From contig NC_043006.1 in NCBI RefSeq assembly GCF_006345805.1, positions 65,162,001-65,226,000 on the forward strand: 64,000 bases of DNA. Direction: 5' to 3'. Shown here piece after piece: positions 15,727 to 47,011 of the stretch (positions are counted from its first letter, which is position 1; each line of letters opens with the position of its first letter). Below the pieces are notes generated by a model. It saw nothing but the letters and a program-made list of their open reading frames with translations. It did not search any database and had not been told where the DNA came from. The translations under genes were made by a program, and so were the position numbers. Origin of the DNA: Octopus sinensis (Eukaryota).

Positions 15727-16801
15727 CGCATAAATATACATACATTTTTTCTGTATATCTGCATATATATTTATATAAATATATATAATATATACACATT
15801 TATATAACATGCACTTATTATTTTATTTATATATATATATATATAAGCACATACAAATATATGTATATATAATTTTCAACCTTTTTCATTCGACAGTACG
15901 ATTATTAAAGGCGCTAATTGCGTTACGACATAGCAGCAATTTTTTTAAAGTTTCATTATATAACCAAGTATTAATATTGTTTTAAGAAACTGGCGCTGAC
16001 ATTAGACTTTGCAGCAAAGAAACATATACACACCAGTAAAGTGCATTAAGAACACTTCTATTTTCTCAATATCCTAGTAATTTACTCGCTTTATTAAAAA
16101 TACGCGGCGCGCGGTGATTAAAAAAAAAACACCACTTAAACACACATACAATTACACTTACATTCAAATACAGGGAGACATATATTCGTACTCATACACA
16201 ACACATTTATTTATGCATAAAAAGGAAAAACTAAGAGGACTGTGTTGAGTGATAATTAAGTAATTAACTTATTTCGTTTGTGTTTTGCTAATAATTTTAA
16301 AGCTTTTCAACATTTGACTATAATAATAATGATGATGATGAGCGTGAAATACATATATTGGAGATGGTTGAAGTTAACATATAATATATATGTATGCCTG
16401 TATACGTGTGTGTACTTCTTCAAGAACTAGGCTAAAAACGCATTAAGCTTATTTTGTGGAACGTATGTGTGTATGCACACAGTTAAATATAGTCGATAGT
16501 ATTTGTTAGTATAGATAGTGAGTTAAAAGTTAGATGTTATCAGTAATGTTTGAGACGAAAAACAAAACCGGTATCACTTACAAATGGAGATTAGAGAGAG
16601 AGAGAGAGACAAGGGGAAAAGAAAACCCAGTGGTTTATGTGTGTTATCAAATAATACAGTGCAACTGTTTTGAAATGTTTCAGTAAATAGATGTAGATAT
16701 AATGTAACGACTTGTTTAAAATGTATTTTACTGTGGTGTTTGTGAGAAAGAAGGGGAGGAAAAGAGAAATTTAATAAATAAAAATAGTTAATTAATCTTA
16801 C

Positions 16802-17829
16802 CTTGGAGGTGTATCTTCCCTCCTGGCTCGATGTGGTGGACTAGGTGTTCGAGATCTGTACCGTTTCCGAGCAGGAGAGATGGGGCTATTACCCCTTTGG
16901 TTCCGATAACCGAAAGACTGTGTTCTGTCGTTGTAAGCCCTCGGCGGATCCGGGTAAGCCCTTGGAGTGTCTGTGTAAGCCCTAGGGGCATCCGTATAAC
17001 CACGATTTTCATCGTAAGCCCTCGGAGGAGGTTCCGGAGAGAAAGTTCGACTGTGGTTTCCTTTTCTGTTACGGCTCCGTCGTCGGCTAGAAGACTGGGC
17101 CCCGATAGTATGATCGCGAGTTTCACTGCGATAATGATATTGGGGACTTCGAGTGTAGCCTGCTTCGGGCCTTACTGGAGACTGGATTTCCGCATAAGCC
17201 CTAGGCGTTTCAATGTATGCTTGCCGGGACACTTCAGCATAGGCCTTCGGAATTTCGCAGTACCTCCTCGGCGAAGAAATTGTTTCCACATAGGAAGTTC
17301 TGTCGTGTCGGTCCAGGCGGTCACGATCAGTTGACCGTGACTGGGGTAGCGGTGGAGGTGCTTGGTGGAGCTGTGGATGTGATTCTGTCGGCGAGTAGCG
17401 ACGGCTCTTTTTGCTCTTCTTGCGGTTTTGTGGATGATAAGGGGTTGGACTTCTACTTCGGCTCCTTCTACTATCCAGCATTGCAGGCGAGTTGCTGTGA
17501 CTTCTCTCAGTCAAGTACATCTTGATAGCTGTCGCCGGAGATTGTCCCCGCTTGTCTCGTTCCCGGTTTGACGCAACCCTGCTGCTCGGGTGACCAGAAG
17601 CCGGCCCACAATCAATGGGCGACTCTAGGTTGGAATCCGAAGACAATTCATCATAGTCTACTAATGGTTTAGTCGACGAACTAGATTTTTCTCTTTCACG
17701 TATCCGCTTTTTTTTCGATTTGTGTTTTTGTTTCTTGTGCTTCTTTAAACTTGATGGCACCAAATGGGCGTAGGCCCGTGCATCAAACTCATCAAACACG
17801 AGGCCTCTGTGGCTTCGTGTGCCAGGCAT
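16802..17829 (-). CDS. CDK12: Cyclin-dependent kinase 12/13 (Pol II CTD kinase), first coding exon, RS/SP-rich N-terminus
   Basis: ATG at 17829. The basic KKHKKQKHKSKKK stretch followed by KPLVDYDELSSDS matches human CDK12 KHKRHKSKH..KPLVEYDDISSDS, and RS/SP dipeptides follow. The exon ends at a strong AAG|GTAAG donor (GT at 16801-16800), 1028 nt, phase 2. The kinase domain is not in the window. Confidence 0.85.
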
Positions 17830-18400
17830 CGTCCACTACAAACCACACTGTGGCTGTTTCTATTGTTGGTTTAAGCCGAACTTGTTGCACATGACGCTGT
17901 CGCAAGATGGCTCGATAGCCCTGTTTAAAAAAATACCTCAATTAAACCGTCTGTTTGTTTAAGAATGAAAGTTATTCCTGAATGTAAGCAAATGAAATAA
18001 GGATAATGGTTAAAAAATATAATAAAGGAAGCTGTTTTATACTATTTAAATATAATAATTGAGGGAACTGTTATAATTTCATAAGGAAGAGAAAGCACAA
18101 CAACGGGGGGGAATGATCTCATTAAATTTTCACCGGTATTGAGATAACCACACCGTATTTACTAAAAATATCTTTGTCATCAGATTTAGTAATCCATATT
18201 CTAACAAAAACATAAGCTGATGACTAAAATAAAAGCATATCTATTAGAATTTTATCCGATTATGTTTTCTATAGTTAACACTATATACATTAGTCGCCAT
18301 TTTACTTTGATTCTTCTACAACTCTAGAACGCAATGGATTCTGGGAAAGACCTCACAAAACAATGACGTATTGCACATATTGAAATTATATTCTTTTCAG
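17830..18400. promoter_or_regulatory. Putative shared (bidirectional) promoter region of CDK12 and INPP1
   Basis: Lies in a TE-free, CpG-retaining zone (about 15900-19900). YY1-like CAAGATGGC on + (17903-17911) and AAAATGGCGAC on - (18303-18293); ZNF143/SBS-like GATTCTGGGAA near 18337; TGACGT near 18364; candidate + donor AAT|GTAAGC at 17984. Confidence 0.5.
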
Positions 18401-38280: not shown

Positions 38281-41200
38281 TATGTATGTATTTGTGTCTG
38301 TTTGTCTCCCAACCATCGCTTGACAACTGATGTTGGTGTGTTTACATCCCTGTCACTTAGCGGTTTGGCAAAAAGAGACCGATAGAATAAGTACTAGGCT
38401 TACAAAGAATAAGTCCTGGGGGTCAATTTGTGGTGCTCCAGCATGGCTGCAGTCAAATGGTTGAAGCAAGTAAATGAATAAAAGAAAAGAATGTATATTA
38501 ATTTAGTATTAATATTTTAATGATAATGATAATAATTATTAAATACTATGGCTTCTCTTCTGAGCCTGTCTAGCTGTGTGATGTGTAAACTTGGTTTGCA
38601 CAAGGCCTGTACTCAGTGTCCGTTTTGTACACCCGTTATGCCCCCCCCCCATTTTAATTCATACATTAACATTTTCACTTGGCGACTCATACGCTTCCCA
38701 TGCTGTGTGTGTGAATACATATTTTGATTATAGCCTTATACCCCCTTATACTCCTCATACAGGAGTATACAGTTAAAGGTACCACATATATAAATATAAA
38801 TATTTAGGCATATAATACTTGGCAGGAAGGATAGAGTAGGTGGGTAGATAAAGTAAGAGCATGTGGTAGGGTAAGAGTTGCTGAAGTATGGAACAAACTG
38901 CTGGCATCAGTTGTTGGTTGTCGGAGCACTGCATCCTTCAAAATTTCCATGCTTCCTGAGATTCACCAACACTACACCTGATTTTCTCCTCTCCATACAC
39001 ACGCAAGCATGTATCTGACACATACACTGTTCACTTCCCAGATATTTGTACATTACTGCATATGCTTTATATGCACTTTTGACAAGTTGTGGTGCACCTG
39101 AGCACTGCATACAATAATTTCATTATTATTATTTTTTTTAAGATGGGACTTGTAATAGATAAATTAACAGTTACATTTATCTCTGCCTATGCTCCTCAGT
39201 CTGAGCAGAAGGACCAATTCTATGAGATCCTTTTGCAGACCGCCTCAACAGCAAATGATAGAGTCTTCGTTAATGTGGCTGAGGACTTCAGTGGACATGT
39301 TGGACATCATCCCCATAGATTCCAGGGAGTGCATGGGGGCTATGGTTTTGGACCTAGAAATGAGGAGGGAACAAGACTACTGGAGTTCTGTGAGGCAAAT
39401 GATCTCATGATCTGCAACACTAACTTCAAAAAACCAGCCAGCCACCTAATCACTTATCAGTCTGGTGAGTACATAAGCCAAATTGACTACCTCCTCCCCA
39501 GGTAACGAGACAGATTGATGCTTAAAAATGCAAAGTCTTTCCCAGGTGAAGAGTGTACAATCCAATATAGGTTACTAGTTAGTGACTTCAGAATTAGAGT
39601 TAGAAAGGCTTGGAGAAATAAACCAATCTGGAAAAGAAGACTATGGAAGCTCAAAGACCCAGCAAATAGACAAAAATTTAGAGGTTTACTAATGGAAGCT
39701 TCTGATGAAAGAGAGGAAGAGTTGGGGACATATAGCTTAGAGGATAACTGGAAGTTCCTGTGGGTCAATTTACTGAGGACTATGGATGGAATCTGTGGTT
39801 GGTGCAGTGTCCCAGATAGACCAAGTGTGGCATGATAGTGGAGCATGGAGGTTGAGAATGCTATAAAAGCAAAATGACAAGCCTGGAAAGACTGGAAAAA
39901 TGGTGGATGCAGAAAATTATATCAGGCAGCTAAGCATCAGGTATACATAGCAAAAGGAGTAGCTGAAGGTAAGAGATTTGCAAATGTTCTACAGCATGAG
40001 GATCAGAGATGTGAGGTGTTCAGGATTGCAAAGCGGTGTATCAGAGAAAATAAGGATGTGGTAGGTGAGAAATGTGTGCGAATGGATAATGATATGCTTG
40101 CACTTAGTGACTCAAAGAAGAAAGATGCAAGGAAGTGTCCCTATGAAGGGTTACAAAATATGGAAAATGAATGGAAGACGGAAAGTCTACTAAATATTGA
40201 ACCAATTGAGGGACCAGCCATTAGAGTTGACAACAGCATAAGAGATAAAGCAATTAAGGACAGGAAGACAGAGAAAGCCCCTGGGCCATCAGGAATCACA
40301 GCTGAGATGATTAAAATCTCTGGTGGTGTAGGATACAGCTTAGTTATCCGTATAGTTAATCAGGTTATTCAAGAGGGCACCATCCCCAATGACTGGTGTA
40401 GAAGTATTATAGGTAGCTACTACAAGAGTAAAGGTGATGCTTTAGACAGAAACAATTACAGAGGCATTAAATTGCGAGACCAAGTCATAAAAGTTATTGA
40501 TAAGGTTATAGCTCAATTGATTAGAAATAGAATTAAACTAGATGAGATGCAGTTTGGTTTTGTACCTGGGAAGAGTACCACAGGTGCCATTTTCCTAGTG
40601 AGATAGCTGCAGGAAAAGTACTTGGCCAAAAATAAGCCATTGTACTTAGCCTTCGTTGACCTGGAGAAAGCTTTTGACAGAGTTCCCCACTTTGTTATAT
40701 GGTGGTCTCTAAGGAAGTTAAGAGTAGAGGAGTGACTTGTTAGAACTGTACAAGTTATGTACAGTGGTGCTGTCAGTAAGGTGAGAGTCGGACATGAATG
40801 CAGTGATGAATTCAGCATACAGGTAGGGGTTCACCAGGGCTCAGTTCTCGGCCCACTCTTATTTATTATAGTCCCCCTGACCATAACAGAGGAATTCAAA
40901 ACTGGATACCCTGGGAACTGCTATATGCTGATAACTTTGCTCTTATTGCAGAATCTTTAGCAGAATTGGAGAAGAAATTCCAGGTATGGAAACAAAACCT
41001 GGAATCAAAGGGCCTTAAAGTTAACCAAAGACCAAAGTTGTTGTTAGTAAGAAAAAAGATAAAACTTTCTTTCTGTCAGGTAAATAGCCCTGCTCAATAT
41101 GTAAGAAAGTAGTTGGAAGAAATTTCATTTGCTGCACCCAGTGTAAACTATGGACACATAAGAGGTGCAGTGGAATCACAGGTATATTAACAGATAAAGT

Positions 41201-41321
41201 CGTCTTTGTATGTGGCAGATTTACCAGAGCAGTAAGCACTAAGAGCACACAGGACTTAGATTCCCTCAAATGCCCAGGAGGCTTTCTTGAGGTTGTAGAT
41301 AATTTCTGTTGCCTATATGAC

Positions 41322-41598
41322 TGTGATAAGTGTGGTGAAAAGGAGCGTAACAGAACAAGGAAAAGAATTAGAAGTGTAATTTGGTCTTACCTGTAGAGAT
41401 GAAGCCGGATTCGCCTTGAGCCAACTTGCTAGCGTCTTGTCGTCTTGGCGTCGTTCTCGAGTCTGACTGCCCTGGTTGATGCCGCACGTGCGTTCTGTCT
41501 CTCACTTCCGCTTCCGCCGGCGCATGCGCCCTGCGAGACCTGCAAGACCCACTTCCGCTCCCTCCATCTCTGTCACACTCCCTCATCACCACACCACA
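41322..41598 (-). repeat. 3' LTR
   Basis: Preceded on the - strand by the polypurine tract AGGGGGGCG (41607-41599). Confidence 0.95.
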
Positions 41599-41634
41599 CG
41601 CCCCCCTGATCTATAGATCACTGAACCGGCTTCC

Positions 41635-44547
41635 TCACTCGCTCCCGCACCTGAGACTGGTTTCGTAGTCAGCCAACCAGGGAGGAGGGTGCCGCTCCCT
41701 CTGTGGTCGCAGTGCGACCCTAGGACTTGTTTCTGGCGTGTTGCTGCCGACCTCGTCATCCTGTCTGTTGTTATCGTCTTGCCCACTGTTGCTTGTCCCA
41801 TCCTCCGGGGCATGGACAATCCTCCGTATGTCCAAAACGTGGCGTGGCATACCATCTACCGAGATGTTATTCTTTGAATTTACGGAGGTTATAGTCCCCT
41901 TTCCCCATTGCGATGTACACCGTGCGTTCGGAGGTTTCACCCAGACTTCCTCCCCGACCTGTACGAAGGCGTGCTCTTCCTCTGCCCCGGGTCGCATTGA
42001 TGTAGTACACGGATGCCTCCACTCGTACCTGAATATTGCCTTGTGTGGCACCGACTCCTCGGCCTGTCCTGATCTGGGCGACATGTTGTACCAAAACACG
42101 GCCTCGACTGGTGAAATGTGACCCCTCTCAGCCATGGCCTTGATGGTACGATGATGCCTTTCCACCACCCCGTTTCCACTTGGCCGGTATGCCGCCCTGA
42201 AGAAGCGGTTGACCTTCCACTCATCAAGCATTTCTCTCAGCGCCTCCGAGCGAAATGCAGTGCCGTTGTCCAGAAGCAGTTCATCCACGGGGCCTCGTTC
42301 CAGGAATATCTCGTTCAGCACTTTCGCAATTTCTTCTGCGGTTCCTGACCTCATCTCCCTCCATATGGCGAACCGCCCCGGTCCGCAGTCAACCATTGAG
42401 AGGTATGTCCCCTGCCGGTAGTGTGTTATGTCCACCGCCAGTCGTCTCCAGTCCTGGTCCACTGGAATACTTCCCGCTTCATGCACGACCGGAGCAGGGT
42501 CGATGGACTGGCACCTGTCACAACTGCTAACCACTCTCCGCACGCTCTGTCTTGTTACGTCGGAGTCGACTTTTCTGGCCAGGAACAACGTCCTGTCCAC
42601 ACCCATGTGATGCATGGTGTGCAGTCTCCGCAACTCCGAGTCGCTCAGATGGCATACTGCAGCTACATCCTGCTTCGCGTCCTCTGGCACTTGCAACCAG
42701 GCTCGCTTAACCCTGGTCAGGACGTCTGCCCTGTTCTTCTCGGAAGGCACAAAGATCACGCTCAGCTTCAGATTGAACTCAGTGGTCAGTTCACGCAGTA
42801 TCCCCAATCGACGCTTTACCAGCATCTCTGCAGCCCCTTTGGTCCGCACCCTCCGCTCATCGGTGATGACTGCCGTCGCCCAACCAAGTACAGTGGCTGA
42901 ATCAGTCCTGATTTCTATGGTGTGCAACCCCCACTTCAAGGCTAGGTTCACCCCCTTCAGCACGGCTTCCAACTCCGCCACGTTGATGTGACTGCAGTCA
43001 TCCATCTTCCTGAGCCAGGCTGCATCTTCCACCGTGACACCTCCCACTTCCAAGACAATCCCTATTGCGATGCTACTGGCGTCACACCATACGATCCCGC
43101 TCTTTGATTTGGGAACGTACCAGCTGCCCCTCACCGGGTCCTCTGTTCTTACTCTGACCAGGACTTCCTGCATCATGTCGATCGTCCTCTCCCCCACTTT
43201 ATCATTCCACTTCACTCCTTCGGCTCGTCTCTTGATGAAGCTGCATGCTGTCCGGAGCCAGCCTGCAATCGGGTAGTGTCCCACCAGCTTCCCACACACA
43301 GAGAACAGCTCCCGTCTACTCATGCTGGCGCCCAGTTCAGGGATCTCATTCCCTCGCCGGAACACCAAGGCGCCGGCTTTGTCTCTCCATAGCTTGAGGC
43401 CCAGTGCAGCACCTCCCTCCATAGCCTCTGGCGGCTTGGCGATCAGTCCAAAACTCTTCAGGTGGCCTATGACCTCCGTTGCTGGTATCACGGTTTCATC
43501 CACCAGAATGTCGTCGATGTATGAATTGGTGGCCCTTTTTACTCTGTCCACCTTCCCCAGGACGGCCTTGAGAATTGTTGCCATAATCTTTGGAGCTGAA
43601 TTCAGCCCGAATCCCAACCTGGTCAGACAGTACGTCCGGCCCCTATACCTGACGAGCTGGTACCTCCATAGTTTCTCAGCCACATGAACCTGAAGGTATG
43701 CCGACTTCAAATCGACAATCGTGGAGGCCCCCGCCGTCTGCCTCCACTCTCGCAAGGTGTCTCCGCAGACATCCGTGGCCTCGCCGCCTGTATGACACGA
43801 CACGTGGTCATTCAGCTCTCGGAAGTCGAGCACTGGCCTGACCTTACGTTTTGTGGGCTGTATCACCGCCATCAGTGGCAGGACTCCGCTCTCTTCTTTT
43901 TCCCAGGGGATCAGTATGCCCTCCTTAATCCACCGCTCCACCTCCCCCTCGAACTCACTTCTGGCATCTCCTTTTAGAGTATGCTGATAGCAGCCCACTT
44001 TGTTCTTTAACATCGGGGGCTCTCCCTTCCAGTGCCACTCCACTGTCCACCTCTCGCCATCAAAGACAGCCCGAAAATCCTGGTCTTCAATGGTGTGCGC
44101 CGCATCCATTTCCTCACGGTTGTCGTCGGTGCGTGGTGTCGCCCTACACGGCTTCCCTGCTAGCCCAAACGTTACGCCAGCCTCGTTGACGGTAACACCT
44201 CCCAGACGGGTGATCGCATCCATCCCCATCACCACGTCGATCTCGTCCACCAAGTGACCGACCACAATCGCTCGCAACGTCAGCTGAAGTCCCTGCACCA
44301 CGATCTGCGCATCCGTAACCCCTTCGCAGTGCACTTCTCTTCCGTCGACTGCCCTGACACTGCTTCCTCCACTCCACGTCTCTGCCACTTCTGTGGTCAT
44401 CAGGGTCGTCGTACAGCCCGTGTCCACCAGGGCTCGCGACATCTTCCCCTTCACCAGAATGTCGACCACAGGTAACGATGAGAAACGCGCCGCTACTAAT
44501 CCAAAGGGACAACTACCGGCGCAGTAGTCTCCCGCGGTCCGTTTCCC
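41635..44547 (-). CDS. pol: Pol polyprotein (protease, RT, RNase H, integrase), likely expressed by -1 frameshift from gag
   Basis: LVDTGC (PR); RPVLDFRELN, DLKSAY, FGLNSAP, YIDDILV (RT); WCDASS, AELEA, TDS, ADVLTR (RH); H..H..CDRC, VDITH, LDNG, VERHHRTIK (IN). The frame is uninterrupted. Confidence 0.95.
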   Translation of the reverse strand, partial: GKRTAGDYCAGSCPFGLVAARFSSLPVVDILVKGKMSRALVDTGCTTTLMTTEVAETWSGGSSVRAVDGREVHCEGVTDAQIVVQGLQLTLRAIVVGHLVDEIDVVMGMDAITRLGGVTVNEAGVTFGLAGKPCRATPRTDDNREEMDAAHTIEDQDFRAVFDGERWTVEWHWKGEPPMLKNKVGCYQHTLKGDARSEFEGEVERWIKEGILIPWEKEESGVLPLMAVIQPTKRKVRPVLDFRELNDHVSCHTGGEATDVCGDTLREWRQTAGASTIVDLKSAYLQVHVAEKLWRYQLVRYRGRTYCLTRLGFGLNSAPKIMATILKAVLGKVDRVKRATNSYIDDILVDETVIPATEVIGHLKSFGLIAKPPEAMEGGAALGLKLWRDKAGALVFRRGNEIPELGASMSRRELFSVCGKLVGHYPIAGWLRTACSFIKRRAEGVKWNDKVGERTIDMMQEVLVRVRTEDPVRGSWYVPKSKSGIVWCDASSIAIGIVLEVGGVTVEDAAWLRKMDDCSHINVAELEAVLKGVNLALKWGLHTIEIRTDSATVLGWATAVITDERRVRTKGAAEMLVKRRLGILRELTTEFNLKLSVIFVPSEKNRADVLTRVKRAWLQVPEDAKQDVAAVCHLSDSELRRLHTMHHMGVDRTLFLARKVDSDVTRQSVRRVVSSCDRCQSIDPAPVVHEAGSIPVDQDWRRLAVDITHYRQGTYLSMVDCGPGRFAIWREMRSGTAEEIAKVLNEIFLERGPVDELLLDNGTAFRSEALREMLDEWKVNRFFRAAYRPSGNGVVERHHRTIKAMAERGHISPVEAVFWYNMSPRSGQAEESVPHKAIFRYEWRHPCTTSMRPGAEEEHAFVQVGEEVWVKPPNARCTSQWGKGTITSVNSKNNISVDGMPRHVLDIRRIVHAPEDGTSNSGQDDNNRQDDEVGSNTPETSPRVALRPQRERHPPPWLADYETSLRCGSE
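44487..44547 (-). promoter_or_regulatory. -1 programmed ribosomal frameshift signal (G GGA AAC plus H-type pseudoknot)
   Basis: Slippery heptamer 44547-44541 in the gag frame; 7-nt spacer; stem GGGAGACUAC/GUAGUUGUCCC; loop GCGCCG complementary to downstream CGGCGC. Confidence 0.8.
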
Positions 44548-45251
44548 CGCAGACACTCGCTGGCCACATGCCCCGGCTCTCGGCACCGGTAGCAAATCAC
44601 CTCGGGCTTGGGCGACGCGCAGTCACGGACCATGTGTGGGCCCTGGCACCGGAAACACTGTCCCTTAAACGACCGCACGCGTTCTTTCCCCAGCCCCTCT
44701 CCGTTGCTCCTAGCTGGGCCACTTTTCGACGTTGCAGTCGCTGCTACCGACGTCGACCTGCTGCACGACACCAGTACACGTGCCCGCGATATAATCTCGG
44801 CCATCGGCATCGAACGCACGTTCGGGAGCTTCTGTAGCTCGACCGACATGATGTCGGGAAAGCCGGTCACGAACGCTAACCTGACCGTGCGTTCTAGCGA
44901 CTCTCCCTCATATCCCGCAAGTTTTGCCAACCTTCTAAGCTCGCCGGCGAACACGTCCACCTGCTGTCCTGTCCACCTCATCCTACCCAGTCGAGTGTAC
45001 GCTTCGAACATTCCTTCCGCGAAGGCCTCCATAAGTCGGATCTCCACCTTGTCCGCGCTGCGTTGGTCCGCTTCCTCCATCTCCAGATATAACGCCAACG
45101 CCGGGCCATCCAAATACAACGGCATAAAACTAGCCAGGTCAGCTATGCCGTGTAGCTTCGCCACCAACTTCACCCTCCTCAACCAAGCGACCACGTCGGT
45201 GTCGCCGCAAAACGGTGTTATAGGGTCGCGTGAAATCATAGCAGTCTGCAT
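44496..45251 (-). CDS. gag: Gag (251 aa) with two CCHC zinc knuckles
   Basis: CFRCQGPHMVRDC and CYRCREPGHVASEC; starts 53 nt after the 5' LTR. Confidence 0.92.
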   Translation of the reverse strand: MQTAMISRDPITPFCGDTDVVAWLRRVKLVAKLHGIADLASFMPLYLDGPALALYLEMEEADQRSADKVEIRLMEAFAEGMFEAYTRLGRMRWTGQQVDVFAGELRRLAKLAGYEGESLERTVRLAFVTGFPDIMSVELQKLPNVRSMPMAEIISRARVLVSCSRSTSVAATATSKSGPARSNGEGLGKERVRSFKGQCFRCQGPHMVRDCASPKPEVICYRCREPGHVASECLRGNGPRETTAPVVVPLD

Positions 45252-45292
45252 AATTTTTATTTTTTATTTTCACGAAACCGAGTGATTATTTT

Positions 45293-45304
45293 GCCGAAAT
45301 AGCT
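45293..45304 (-). promoter_or_regulatory. Non-canonical primer-binding site complementary to tRNA-Phe nt 1-12
   Basis: AGCTATTTCGGC directly follows the 5' LTR; its complement GCCGAAATAGCT is the conserved 5' end of animal tRNA-Phe(GAA). Confidence 0.7.
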
Positions 45305-45581
45305 TGTGATAAGTGTGGTGAAAAGGAGCGTAACAGAACAAGGAAAAGAATTAGAAGTGTAATTTGGTCTTACCTGTAGAGATGAAGCCGGATTCGCCTT
45401 GAGCCAACTTGCTAGCGTCTTGTCGTCTTGGCGTCGTTCTCGAGTCTGACTGCCCTGGTTGATGCCGCACGTGCGTTCTGTCTCTCACTTCCGCTTCCGC
45501 CGGCGCATGCGCCCTGCGAGACCTGCAAGACCCACTTCCGCTCCCTCCATCTCTGTCACACTCCCTCATCACCACACCACA
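45305..45581 (-). repeat. 5' LTR
   Basis: TGTGGTGTGG..CTTATCACA on the - strand; identical to 41322-41598 by eye. Confidence 0.95.
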
Positions 45582-47011
45582 ATGACCAAATTAGCAATGG
45601 TGGAGGATGTTCTGAAAGTATTGATTCTAGAATAAAAATTGGGTGGAGGAAGTTCAGAGAGCTATTACCTTTGTTGGCAACAAAAGGACTATCTCTCAGA
45701 GTGAAAGGTGGACTATATGGTGTTTATGTGCCAATGGCTATACTCCATGGTAGTGAGACATGGGCTCTGAATGCTGAAGACATGCATAGACTGGAGAGAA
45801 ATGAAGGTAGTATGTTCCATTGGATGTGCAACATCTGTGAACAGGTACGGCAAAATGCAAATGTATTGAGAGAAAGATTGAGCATAAGAGGAATCAAATG
45901 TAGCATGCAAGAGAGAAGACTATGTTGGTTTGGATATGTGATATGTATGAATGAGGACAGCTGCATAAAGAAGTGCTGATCACTGGAAGTAGATCATACC
46001 CATGGAAGAGGGAGACCCAGGAAGACATGGAATGAAGTGGTAAGGACCAATCTCAGGATGTTGGGCCTCATTGAGGAAATGACAATGGACTGAGATATCT
46101 GGTGATATGAAGTTCTTGAGAAGACCCATCCACGTCAGTGAAACTGAATTCTAGAAGCACTGTGTATCTCACCCACATTTAACAAGAAAATTTCTCACAC
46201 ACCCTACCACAACAAACCAAATTACATCTCTGCCTCTCTTTCTCACTTTTCCACTTCATGCACTAGGCTTACCTCTCACTCCCCAATCCTGTCCTCTTGG
46301 CCCTGTACCACTGTATCTTTGCTCTCTGCTAGCTTCCAACCTGTGTCCCATCCACGCCTTGTCTCACTATATTATTGCTTATGCCTGGCACTTTGCCATC
46401 ATCTAAATCCTGCTGTCTCTCTCTCTCTCCCTCTCTTTCTCCTGCACTTCCCTCAGGTGGATAACTATATATTTCCTTTGTGGCAGCGCACCTGTTTCTG
46501 TCTCTGCCTCACAATAATCTTACATCATCTAGCCTCAAATCGTTTCCTCCTCCAATTCCCCCTCCCCTTTCAAGAGTTTTTTTTCTTTTTTGTCTTGCAA
46601 GTACTTAGTGACCCTGTCAGTGCAGGTGCCACCTAAAAGCACTCAGTCCACACTGTGAAGTGGTTGGCATTTGGAAGGGCATCCAGCTGTAAAAACCTTG
46701 CCAAAACTGGCCTCGCCTGTGCTGGTGCCACATAAAAAGCACTAAATCCACTCTACTGAGTGGTCGGTGTTAGGAAGGGCATTCAGCTGTAAAAATGCTG
46801 CCAAAACAATTACAGAAGTCTGGTGCAAGCTTCTGCCTGGCCAGCACTTGTCAAACTGTCCCACCCATGCCAGCATGGAAGGTGGACATTAAATGATGAT
46901 GATGTATACATATATCTGTATGTTTTCCTGTATACAGACACAGTCATACATAACACATAAATATATATTATACTATATATACAAACGTACATTTATGTCT
47001 CTGTGTGTATG

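Follow-up and report, generated by a model that had tools for sequence, protein, structure and literature searches.

Which RNA primes reverse transcription in an LTR retrotransposon whose 5' LTR is not followed by TGG? The question is raised by an intact element in a 64,000-nucleotide stretch of the Octopus sinensis genome (assembly GCF_006345805.1, contig NC_043006.1, positions 65,162,001 to 65,226,000 of the forward strand), referred to here as the window. A sequence-only reading of this DNA had proposed a Gypsy element with a primer-binding site (PBS) complementary to the 5' end of tRNA-Phe, rather than to a tRNA 3' end, and a 12-nt 5' tRNA fragment as its primer. The features of the element are listed in Table 1.

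Table 1. Features of the LTR retrotransposon, in window coordinates.
Feature	Position	Strand	Remarks
LTR retrotransposon, intact, 4,260 bp	41322-45581	-	LTRs, target-site duplication (TSD), open gag and pol
5' LTR, 277 bp, TG...CA	45305-45581	-	exact repeat of 41322-41598
3' LTR, 277 bp	41322-41598	-	identical to 5' LTR
PBS, complement of tRNA-Phe(GAA) nt 1-12, flush on LTR	45293-45304	-	
gag, 251 aa, CCHC zinc knuckle	44496-45251	-	
pol frame, 995 aa: protease, RT (YIDD), thumb region = DUF7047, RNase H, integrase	41635-44622	-	
RNase H domain	42688-43098	-	
Polypurine tract (AGGGGGG) and 2-nt CG spacer, then 3' LTR	41599-41607	-	
Target-site duplication, left copy ATGAC	41317-41321	+	
Target-site duplication, right copy ATGAC	45582-45586	+	
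Slippery heptamer GGGAAAC, gag/pol overlap	44541-44547	-	-26.7 kcal/mol hairpin downstream

The identity of the two LTRs and the open gag and pol frames, which had been put forward against a decayed PBS, were found as described. Pol lies in the -1 frame relative to gag, and the position of the slippery heptamer in their overlap indicates that pol is probably expressed by -1 frameshifting; similar heptamers close to the start of pol were seen in several relatives. Pfam models place the domains in the order protease (PR), RT, RNase H (RH), integrase (IN), with the integrase not upstream of RT. The acidic residues of the RNase H (D514, E550, D574 and D633) are invariant in 22 of 22 aligned proteins. 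Both in the window element and in its relatives, two variable bases separate the polypurine tract from the TG of the LTR, a spacer that suggests processing of the cDNA ends by two nucleotides. Four contig sets from sequencing runs cover the element, which sits inside another repeat (window 41250-41321 and 45582-45650); contigs show the empty site. The U5-leader region gave no stable fold (z 0.18), and a search of positions 41000-46000 with Rfam returned a chance match only, outside the element. A splice-donor-like AGGTAAG is present at window 45369-45375 (minus strand) and at the same place in the 3' LTR, and three of five host LTR types have it, 61-71 nt short of the LTR end. An RNA spliced from this position would be without the PBS; no such spliced joint was seen in the contigs from sequencing runs. 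Elsewhere in the window there is an open frame of 345 codons (16798-17835, minus strand).

The assignment to Gypsy holds for layout and domain order. Two LTRs, a polypurine tract (PPT), gag and pol, a target duplication and the PR-RT-RH-IN order are all present, and the arrangement LTR-PBS-gag-pol(PR-RT-RH-IN)-PPT-LTR, without env and at about 4.3 kb, is that of the Metaviridae (Ty3/Gypsy) (PMC7879559). The ICTV profile of this family describes a PBS with complementarity to a host tRNA 3' end (PMC7879559), and here the element departs from it, as its PBS has no such complementarity. The RT need not be of the Ty3/Gypsy type. The predicted RT-RH structure (pLDDT 95) scores Ty3 level with the RTs of MLV, XMRV, CaMV and foamy virus (Z 21.4-22.3, 14-18% identity); the superposition with Ty3 gave Z 21.7 and an rmsd of 3.5 (354 aligned, 18% identity). 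Judged from this model, the RT is equally far from Ty3 and from retroviruses, and the element may represent a separate deep lineage. The Pfam RT_RNaseH model has no match in its pol at E<=0.001, and the RNase H alone has none among PDB sequences. The top matches in the ESM Atlas are clusters without names and serve as a lead only. The lineage may already carry a name among the MolGy, MolAn and PolGy clades of molluscs and annelids; the accessible text of the papers on these clades holds no PBS data and no occurrence of "PBS" (PMC6238403, PMC8556966).

On the minus strand, positions 45293-45304 read AGCTATTTCGGC and follow the terminal CA of the 5' LTR with zero gap; TGG is absent after the LTR, as the sequence-only reading had noticed. 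This 12-mer is an exact complement (12/12) of nt 1-12 of the host tRNA-Phe(GAA), with U12 opposite the first base past the LTR. The pairing is limited to G1-U12, with U12 towards the LTR, and does not extend into the LTR. The predicted start of the host tRNA-Phe was correct: its 5' 15-mer has 129 matches in the 2.7 Gb host genome, compared with 0 for the reversed control, and eight of ten fetched loci are tRNA-Phe(GAA) genes according to ARAGORN, starting at that base. The 12-bp duplex between PBS and tRNA has a calculated energy of -18.7 kcal/mol, versus -8.8 kcal/mol for the acceptor stem that it displaces. Assuming about 60 tRNA types, the chance that a fixed 12-mer matches the first 12 nt of any tRNA 5' end is ~4e-6, and that of a match to a tRNA in any register ~2e-4. 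A better match to the 3' end of another RNA, which would have spoken against the proposal, did not appear in 51 host tRNA genes (9 ARAGORN types, an incomplete set): their 3' ends find runs of at most 2 nt in the leader, and tRNAs other than tRNA-Phe form at most 7 consecutive pairs with it. The host genome also holds a second tRNA-Phe(GAA)-like sequence of 72 nt (7 copies, among L248-L277) with another 5' end and no match to the PBS, and an array in which tRNA-Phe 5' motifs are repeated in tandem every 200 bp (G000:C15:43562502-43577294).

The site is kept throughout the host genome, as had been predicted for the family. The LTR end followed by the 12-mer occurs 271 times, the reversed control once. 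The 81 PBS variants without T at the four variable positions gave 65 matches in total, versus 94 for the control. Among 30 family loci, which include the window's own copy and several duplicates of one insertion, the 12-mer is exact in 29 and carries a C>T change in the remaining one. Twenty further copies were picked for long ORFs out of 150 protein matches; they come from three or more families, in which RT-RH shares 77-78% identity with that of the window element. Fifteen of them have the exact 12-mer, three have one CpG-type transition and two lack the 5' end. CpG-type transitions were the only PBS variants in the host genome. At 80 sites fetched from the first 100 among the 271 matches listed, gag lies directly downstream in 74, and any base can follow the PBS (A 39, G 15, T 14, C 12), as expected if the primer ends at G1. 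This base does not track the 5' leader of the tRNA.

The site reads AGCTA-NNNN-GGC in 18 representatives of the family, whose RT-RH, as far as measured, is 49-78% identical to that of the window element. Positions 1-5 are invariant in 18/18, positions 10-12 are kept in 18, 17 and 17 representatives, respectively, and positions 7-8 are variable, while the flanks are unconserved from +13 onward and from -4 backward. Its complement consists of G1-C2-C3, a variable stretch of acceptor stem and U8-A9-G10-C11-U12; by established tRNA anatomy this is how a tRNA 5' end is built, and the pattern varies only opposite the acceptor stem. Conservation in relatives, another expectation of the earlier reading, thus takes the form of a tRNA-shaped pattern. 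The pattern lies flush on the LTR end in 17 of 25 metagenome loci with related pol, the remaining eight being without the region upstream of gag; it is also present in two of four genome contigs with relatives, the other two of which have no leader. Seven regular PBS variants are seen, and one deviant site (L053) is likely the result of a one-base deletion. The LTR edge was placed independently of the motif by TSD-flanked copies, by comparison of L051 with L047 and by a terminal inverted repeat of 7 bp in L281; in L051 a 3' LTR continues into flanking DNA, which shows that in this family the site directly adjoins the LTR edge.

A tree of RT-RH sequences (35 rows; L059 and L064, too short, were left out) groups elements carrying the host version of the PBS with proteins of Argonauta, Petrolisthes and Oratosquilla (100/99). 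Elements with other variants stand beside proteins of Nymphon (95/89) or Trichuris (98/87), or beside other sequences; the sister of L046 (variant TCCC) is a protein from a sea spider, that of L281 (TTCC) a protein from Trichuris. For these two variants, either tRNA-Phe of the hosts differs or another isotype is used. The covariation of PBS and tRNA in relatives is accordingly a pattern in the sequences, not a host-by-host match. The closest named homologue comes from Argonauta hians, and the lineage comprises at least 836 proteins, with 1,291 representatives at E<=1e-30. Its DUF7047-bearing members come from molluscs, crustaceans, sea spiders, nematodes and further eukaryotes. A sister group (P0220, P0221, P0227, P0228 and P0234) shares the DUF7047 RT-RH and has a longer single-ORF gag-pol and a different integrase.

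Two variant PBS 15-mers were searched in viral contigs, where tRNAs starting at that point account for 23 of 104 and 40 of 120 loci, mostly tRNA-Thr with five tRNA-Phe; the patterns carried a tRNA-like tail and the contigs are not hosts of the elements, which makes this a weak test. No relative of pol was found in the viral contigs, and 58 viral matches of the LTR end with the PBS (15-mer) have no gag or pol nearby. Eukaryotic-type LTR elements were also seen within two bacterial genome bins (L278-L281). The tRNA starts from the bins holding L279 and L281 do not match the PBS of these elements (30 of 73 loci read), so those contigs are probably eukaryotic strays, i.e. contamination. Many relatives (L043-L058, L279, L281) occur as contigs about as long as one element that are circularly permuted and contain only one LTR; they may be repeats that were collapsed, or circles with one LTR.

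If the primer is a 5' piece of a tRNA, plus-strand strong-stop DNA must end at nt 12 of the PBS, and eight rearranged copies break exactly there. In one of them (L452), LTR and 12-mer lead into inverted gag sequence, which is entered at a look-alike (7 of 8 positions); the end of pol and the 3' LTR come next, and a 5-bp TSD encloses the whole. Five copies pass from LTR and 12-mer into inverted pol at one and the same cryptic look-alike, with 9 of 10 matches to the tRNA 5' end, and keep the PBS base at the mismatch position; their LTRs are only about 70-90% alike, so that they do not derive from one event. In the last two, LTR and 12-mer are followed by an LTR in inverted orientation that retains four PBS bases, and one of these copies has a 5-bp duplication. 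The breaks are most simply read as mis-transfers of strong-stop DNA that would have ended at the copy of tRNA G1. Six of the eight copies were found with PBS-anchored patterns in a search aimed at that site; among the first 100 sites listed without PBS bias, two break at nt 12 versus roughly ten elsewhere within 420 nt. Inverted junctions of like quality are available at 240-267 places per element. Every break junction lies inside microhomology, so that the end can be placed no more closely than nt 7-12, and repair after integration could give joins of this kind as well. A search for LTR-LTR circle junctions gave background only (0 of 10 candidates are LTR joins). Integrated tail-to-tail LTR pairs were seen at three loci (L548, G000:C11:64402800-64404000; L549; L550), one with a 5-bp duplication. 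The inverted arm extends as far as the palindromic AGCT of the PBS, a hint that a few bases derived from the primer may be retained at the ends of the cDNA.

Based on the match, its conservation and the break points, the 12-mer is very probably a working PBS whose primer would be a 5'-terminal piece of a mature host tRNA, here tRNA-Phe(GAA), and we propose the following mechanism. Nucleotides 1-12 of the tRNA pair with the PBS, a pairing seen in the sequence, and the rest of the molecule would form an unpaired 3' flap. This flap would be cut at the edge of the duplex, after nt 12 or nt 10, to leave a 3'-OH, and the likeliest cutter would be the RNase H of the element, since the arrangement mirrors Tf1 self-priming, except that the 5' end of a tRNA takes the place of that of the mRNA. 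By this analogy, and provided that a 5' tRNA fragment is the primer, we put the chance that the RNase H makes the cut somewhat above even. RT would then extend the primer to minus strong-stop DNA. Plus-strand synthesis would copy the LTR and the primer and run off at tRNA G1, giving an end at PBS nt 12, the footprint of which is seen in the rearranged copies; a run-off of this kind needs no modified base as a stop. A normal second transfer and integration with a 5-bp duplication would follow. Of the 12-nt fragment first suggested, the 5' origin is supported, but the length may be 10, since two nucleotides separate the polypurine tract from the LTR at the opposite end of the element. By symmetry, the primer may stop at G10, in which case the dinucleotide trimmed away would be the invariant AG; or it may reach U12, so that ribonucleotides would stay on the cDNA.

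Several known systems resemble this scheme in part. The RNase H of Tf1 cuts an RNA:RNA duplex between bases 11 and 12, as described in the accessible part of PMC7175516. Tf1 and Tj1 use an 11-nt 5'-terminal RNA that lies flush on the LTR and is released by a cut at the duplex edge, according to the text available from two sources (PMC7175516, PMC4600332), compared with 10-12 nt in the present element. In contrast to Tf1 and sushi elements, the primer piece would come from a tRNA in trans, and the LTR is without a complement. With its catalytic residues intact, the RNase H is a putative enzyme for Tf1-like RNA:RNA cutting. A 3'-truncated tRNA primer, as proposed here, is also used in half-molecule priming (Drosophila copia, yeast Ty5, plant Osser, Bryco and Bianca, fungal Copia and Helenus); in the portions of the surveys at hand, these elements pair with the anticodon stem-loop of iMet, Ile, Tyr or Asp tRNAs and belong to Copia lineages only (PMC6317226, PMC10886601). 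The octopus element differs in pairing with nt 1-12, from the 5' strand of the acceptor stem to the D-stem, and in its PR-RT-RH-IN order. Skipper of Dictyostelium and Tcn2-5 of Cryptococcus are likewise LTR elements without the TGG signature for which novel priming was proposed; the accessible text reports a polypyrimidine tract for Skipper and names no primer (PMC5006619, PMC7175516), whereas the element described here offers an explicit candidate.

The alternative that survives best concerns the cutter. A ready-made 5' tRNA fragment of 10-12 nt, cut by a host nuclease and packaged, might simply be captured by the element. This is a sub-case of priming by a tRNA 5' piece, ranked second to cutting by the element's RNase H, and we regard it as rather unlikely, though well ahead of the readings discussed below. 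5' tRNA fragments are a known class (PMC7472051, from the part available), and the acceptor stem need not open. However, the sizes catalogued in the accessible text of PMC7515703 are 16-35 nt and exceed the site, the pairing does not continue past U12 into the LTR, and the same end point in elements whose RT-RH are only ~50% alike is simpler with an element-encoded cutter.

The tRNA 5' strand might instead be an anchor only, serving packaging, dimerisation or opening of the acceptor stem, with DNA synthesis primed at a separate site by a different 3' end, for example the CCA tail once it is released. By the logic of the sequence, the 3' acceptor strand would indeed come free when nt 1-12 pair, and the bipartite tRNA contacts known from Ty3 are a precedent. 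Yet the best complement of the tRNA-Phe 3' end is 6 nt in the whole element (nt 1282) and 2 nt in the leader, and the breaks at nt 12 imply that the complement of the site was attached to the minus strand. We consider an anchor role improbable. Even less probable is a site without relation to a tRNA, either a decayed PBS or a motif recognized by protein, for instance an extension of the integrase attachment site. The invariant AGCTA does stand beside the terminal CA, where an integrase contact or a leftover on the cDNA end is conceivable, but this leaves the 12/12 match to tRNA-Phe (p about 4e-6) and the GGC opposite G1-C3 unaccounted for, as well as the sharp loss of conservation at +13 and the restriction of host-genome variants to CpG-type transitions. 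Self-priming of the Tf1 type, in which the element's transcript would supply the primer with its own 5' end and the tRNA match would be coincidental, shares the short flush geometry of Tf1 and Tj1 (PMC4600332, as far as accessible) but is hardly credible: in the 36 site-bearing sequences among 46, the best complement of the site in the 300 nt upstream never exceeds 9 Watson-Crick pairs, and 18-100 of 100 shuffles match or beat it in all 36. Priming from a 3'-CCA end was rejected, as no complement of the tRNA-Phe 3' end longer than 6 nt occurs anywhere in the element.

In the literature covered, which did not extend to Repbase Reports, GyDB or subscription journals, no PBS that pairs with a tRNA 5' end turned up, and we think it unlikely that an annotation of such a site already exists. 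A plant-wide survey lists, in its accessible text, three primer types, namely whole tRNA, half tRNA cut at the anticodon, and self-primer (PMC6317226). The available part of a second study describes 3'-truncated tRNA primers with cuts in the anticodon loop only and in Copia only (PMC10886601). PBS pipelines look at tRNA 3' ends only, as stated in the accessible part of PMC13524379; a site for the 5' tip would therefore be scored as "no PBS".

Returning to priming by a 5' tRNA piece, our tentative overall reading, with a chance a little short of even for all its parts jointly, is that the DUF7047 lineage, as distant from Ty3 as from retroviruses, clips nt 1-10 or 1-12 off a tRNA with its own RNase H. 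This would be a fourth class of primer, halfway between Tf1 self-priming and tRNA priming, would generate a new class of 5'-truncated tRNA and would escape control by 3' tRNA fragments. Lineage-wide priming from the tRNA 5' tip would add a fourth type to the primers of LTR elements and would provide a concrete substrate for RNA:RNA cleavage in trans by a retroelement RNase H. It bears on the evolutionary relation of tRNA priming and self-priming. It also suggests a route around silencing by 3' tRNA fragments (3'-tRFs) and a possible role of 5'-tRFs in the control of such elements, and the site itself is a sequence marker for a large, poorly classified group of elements.
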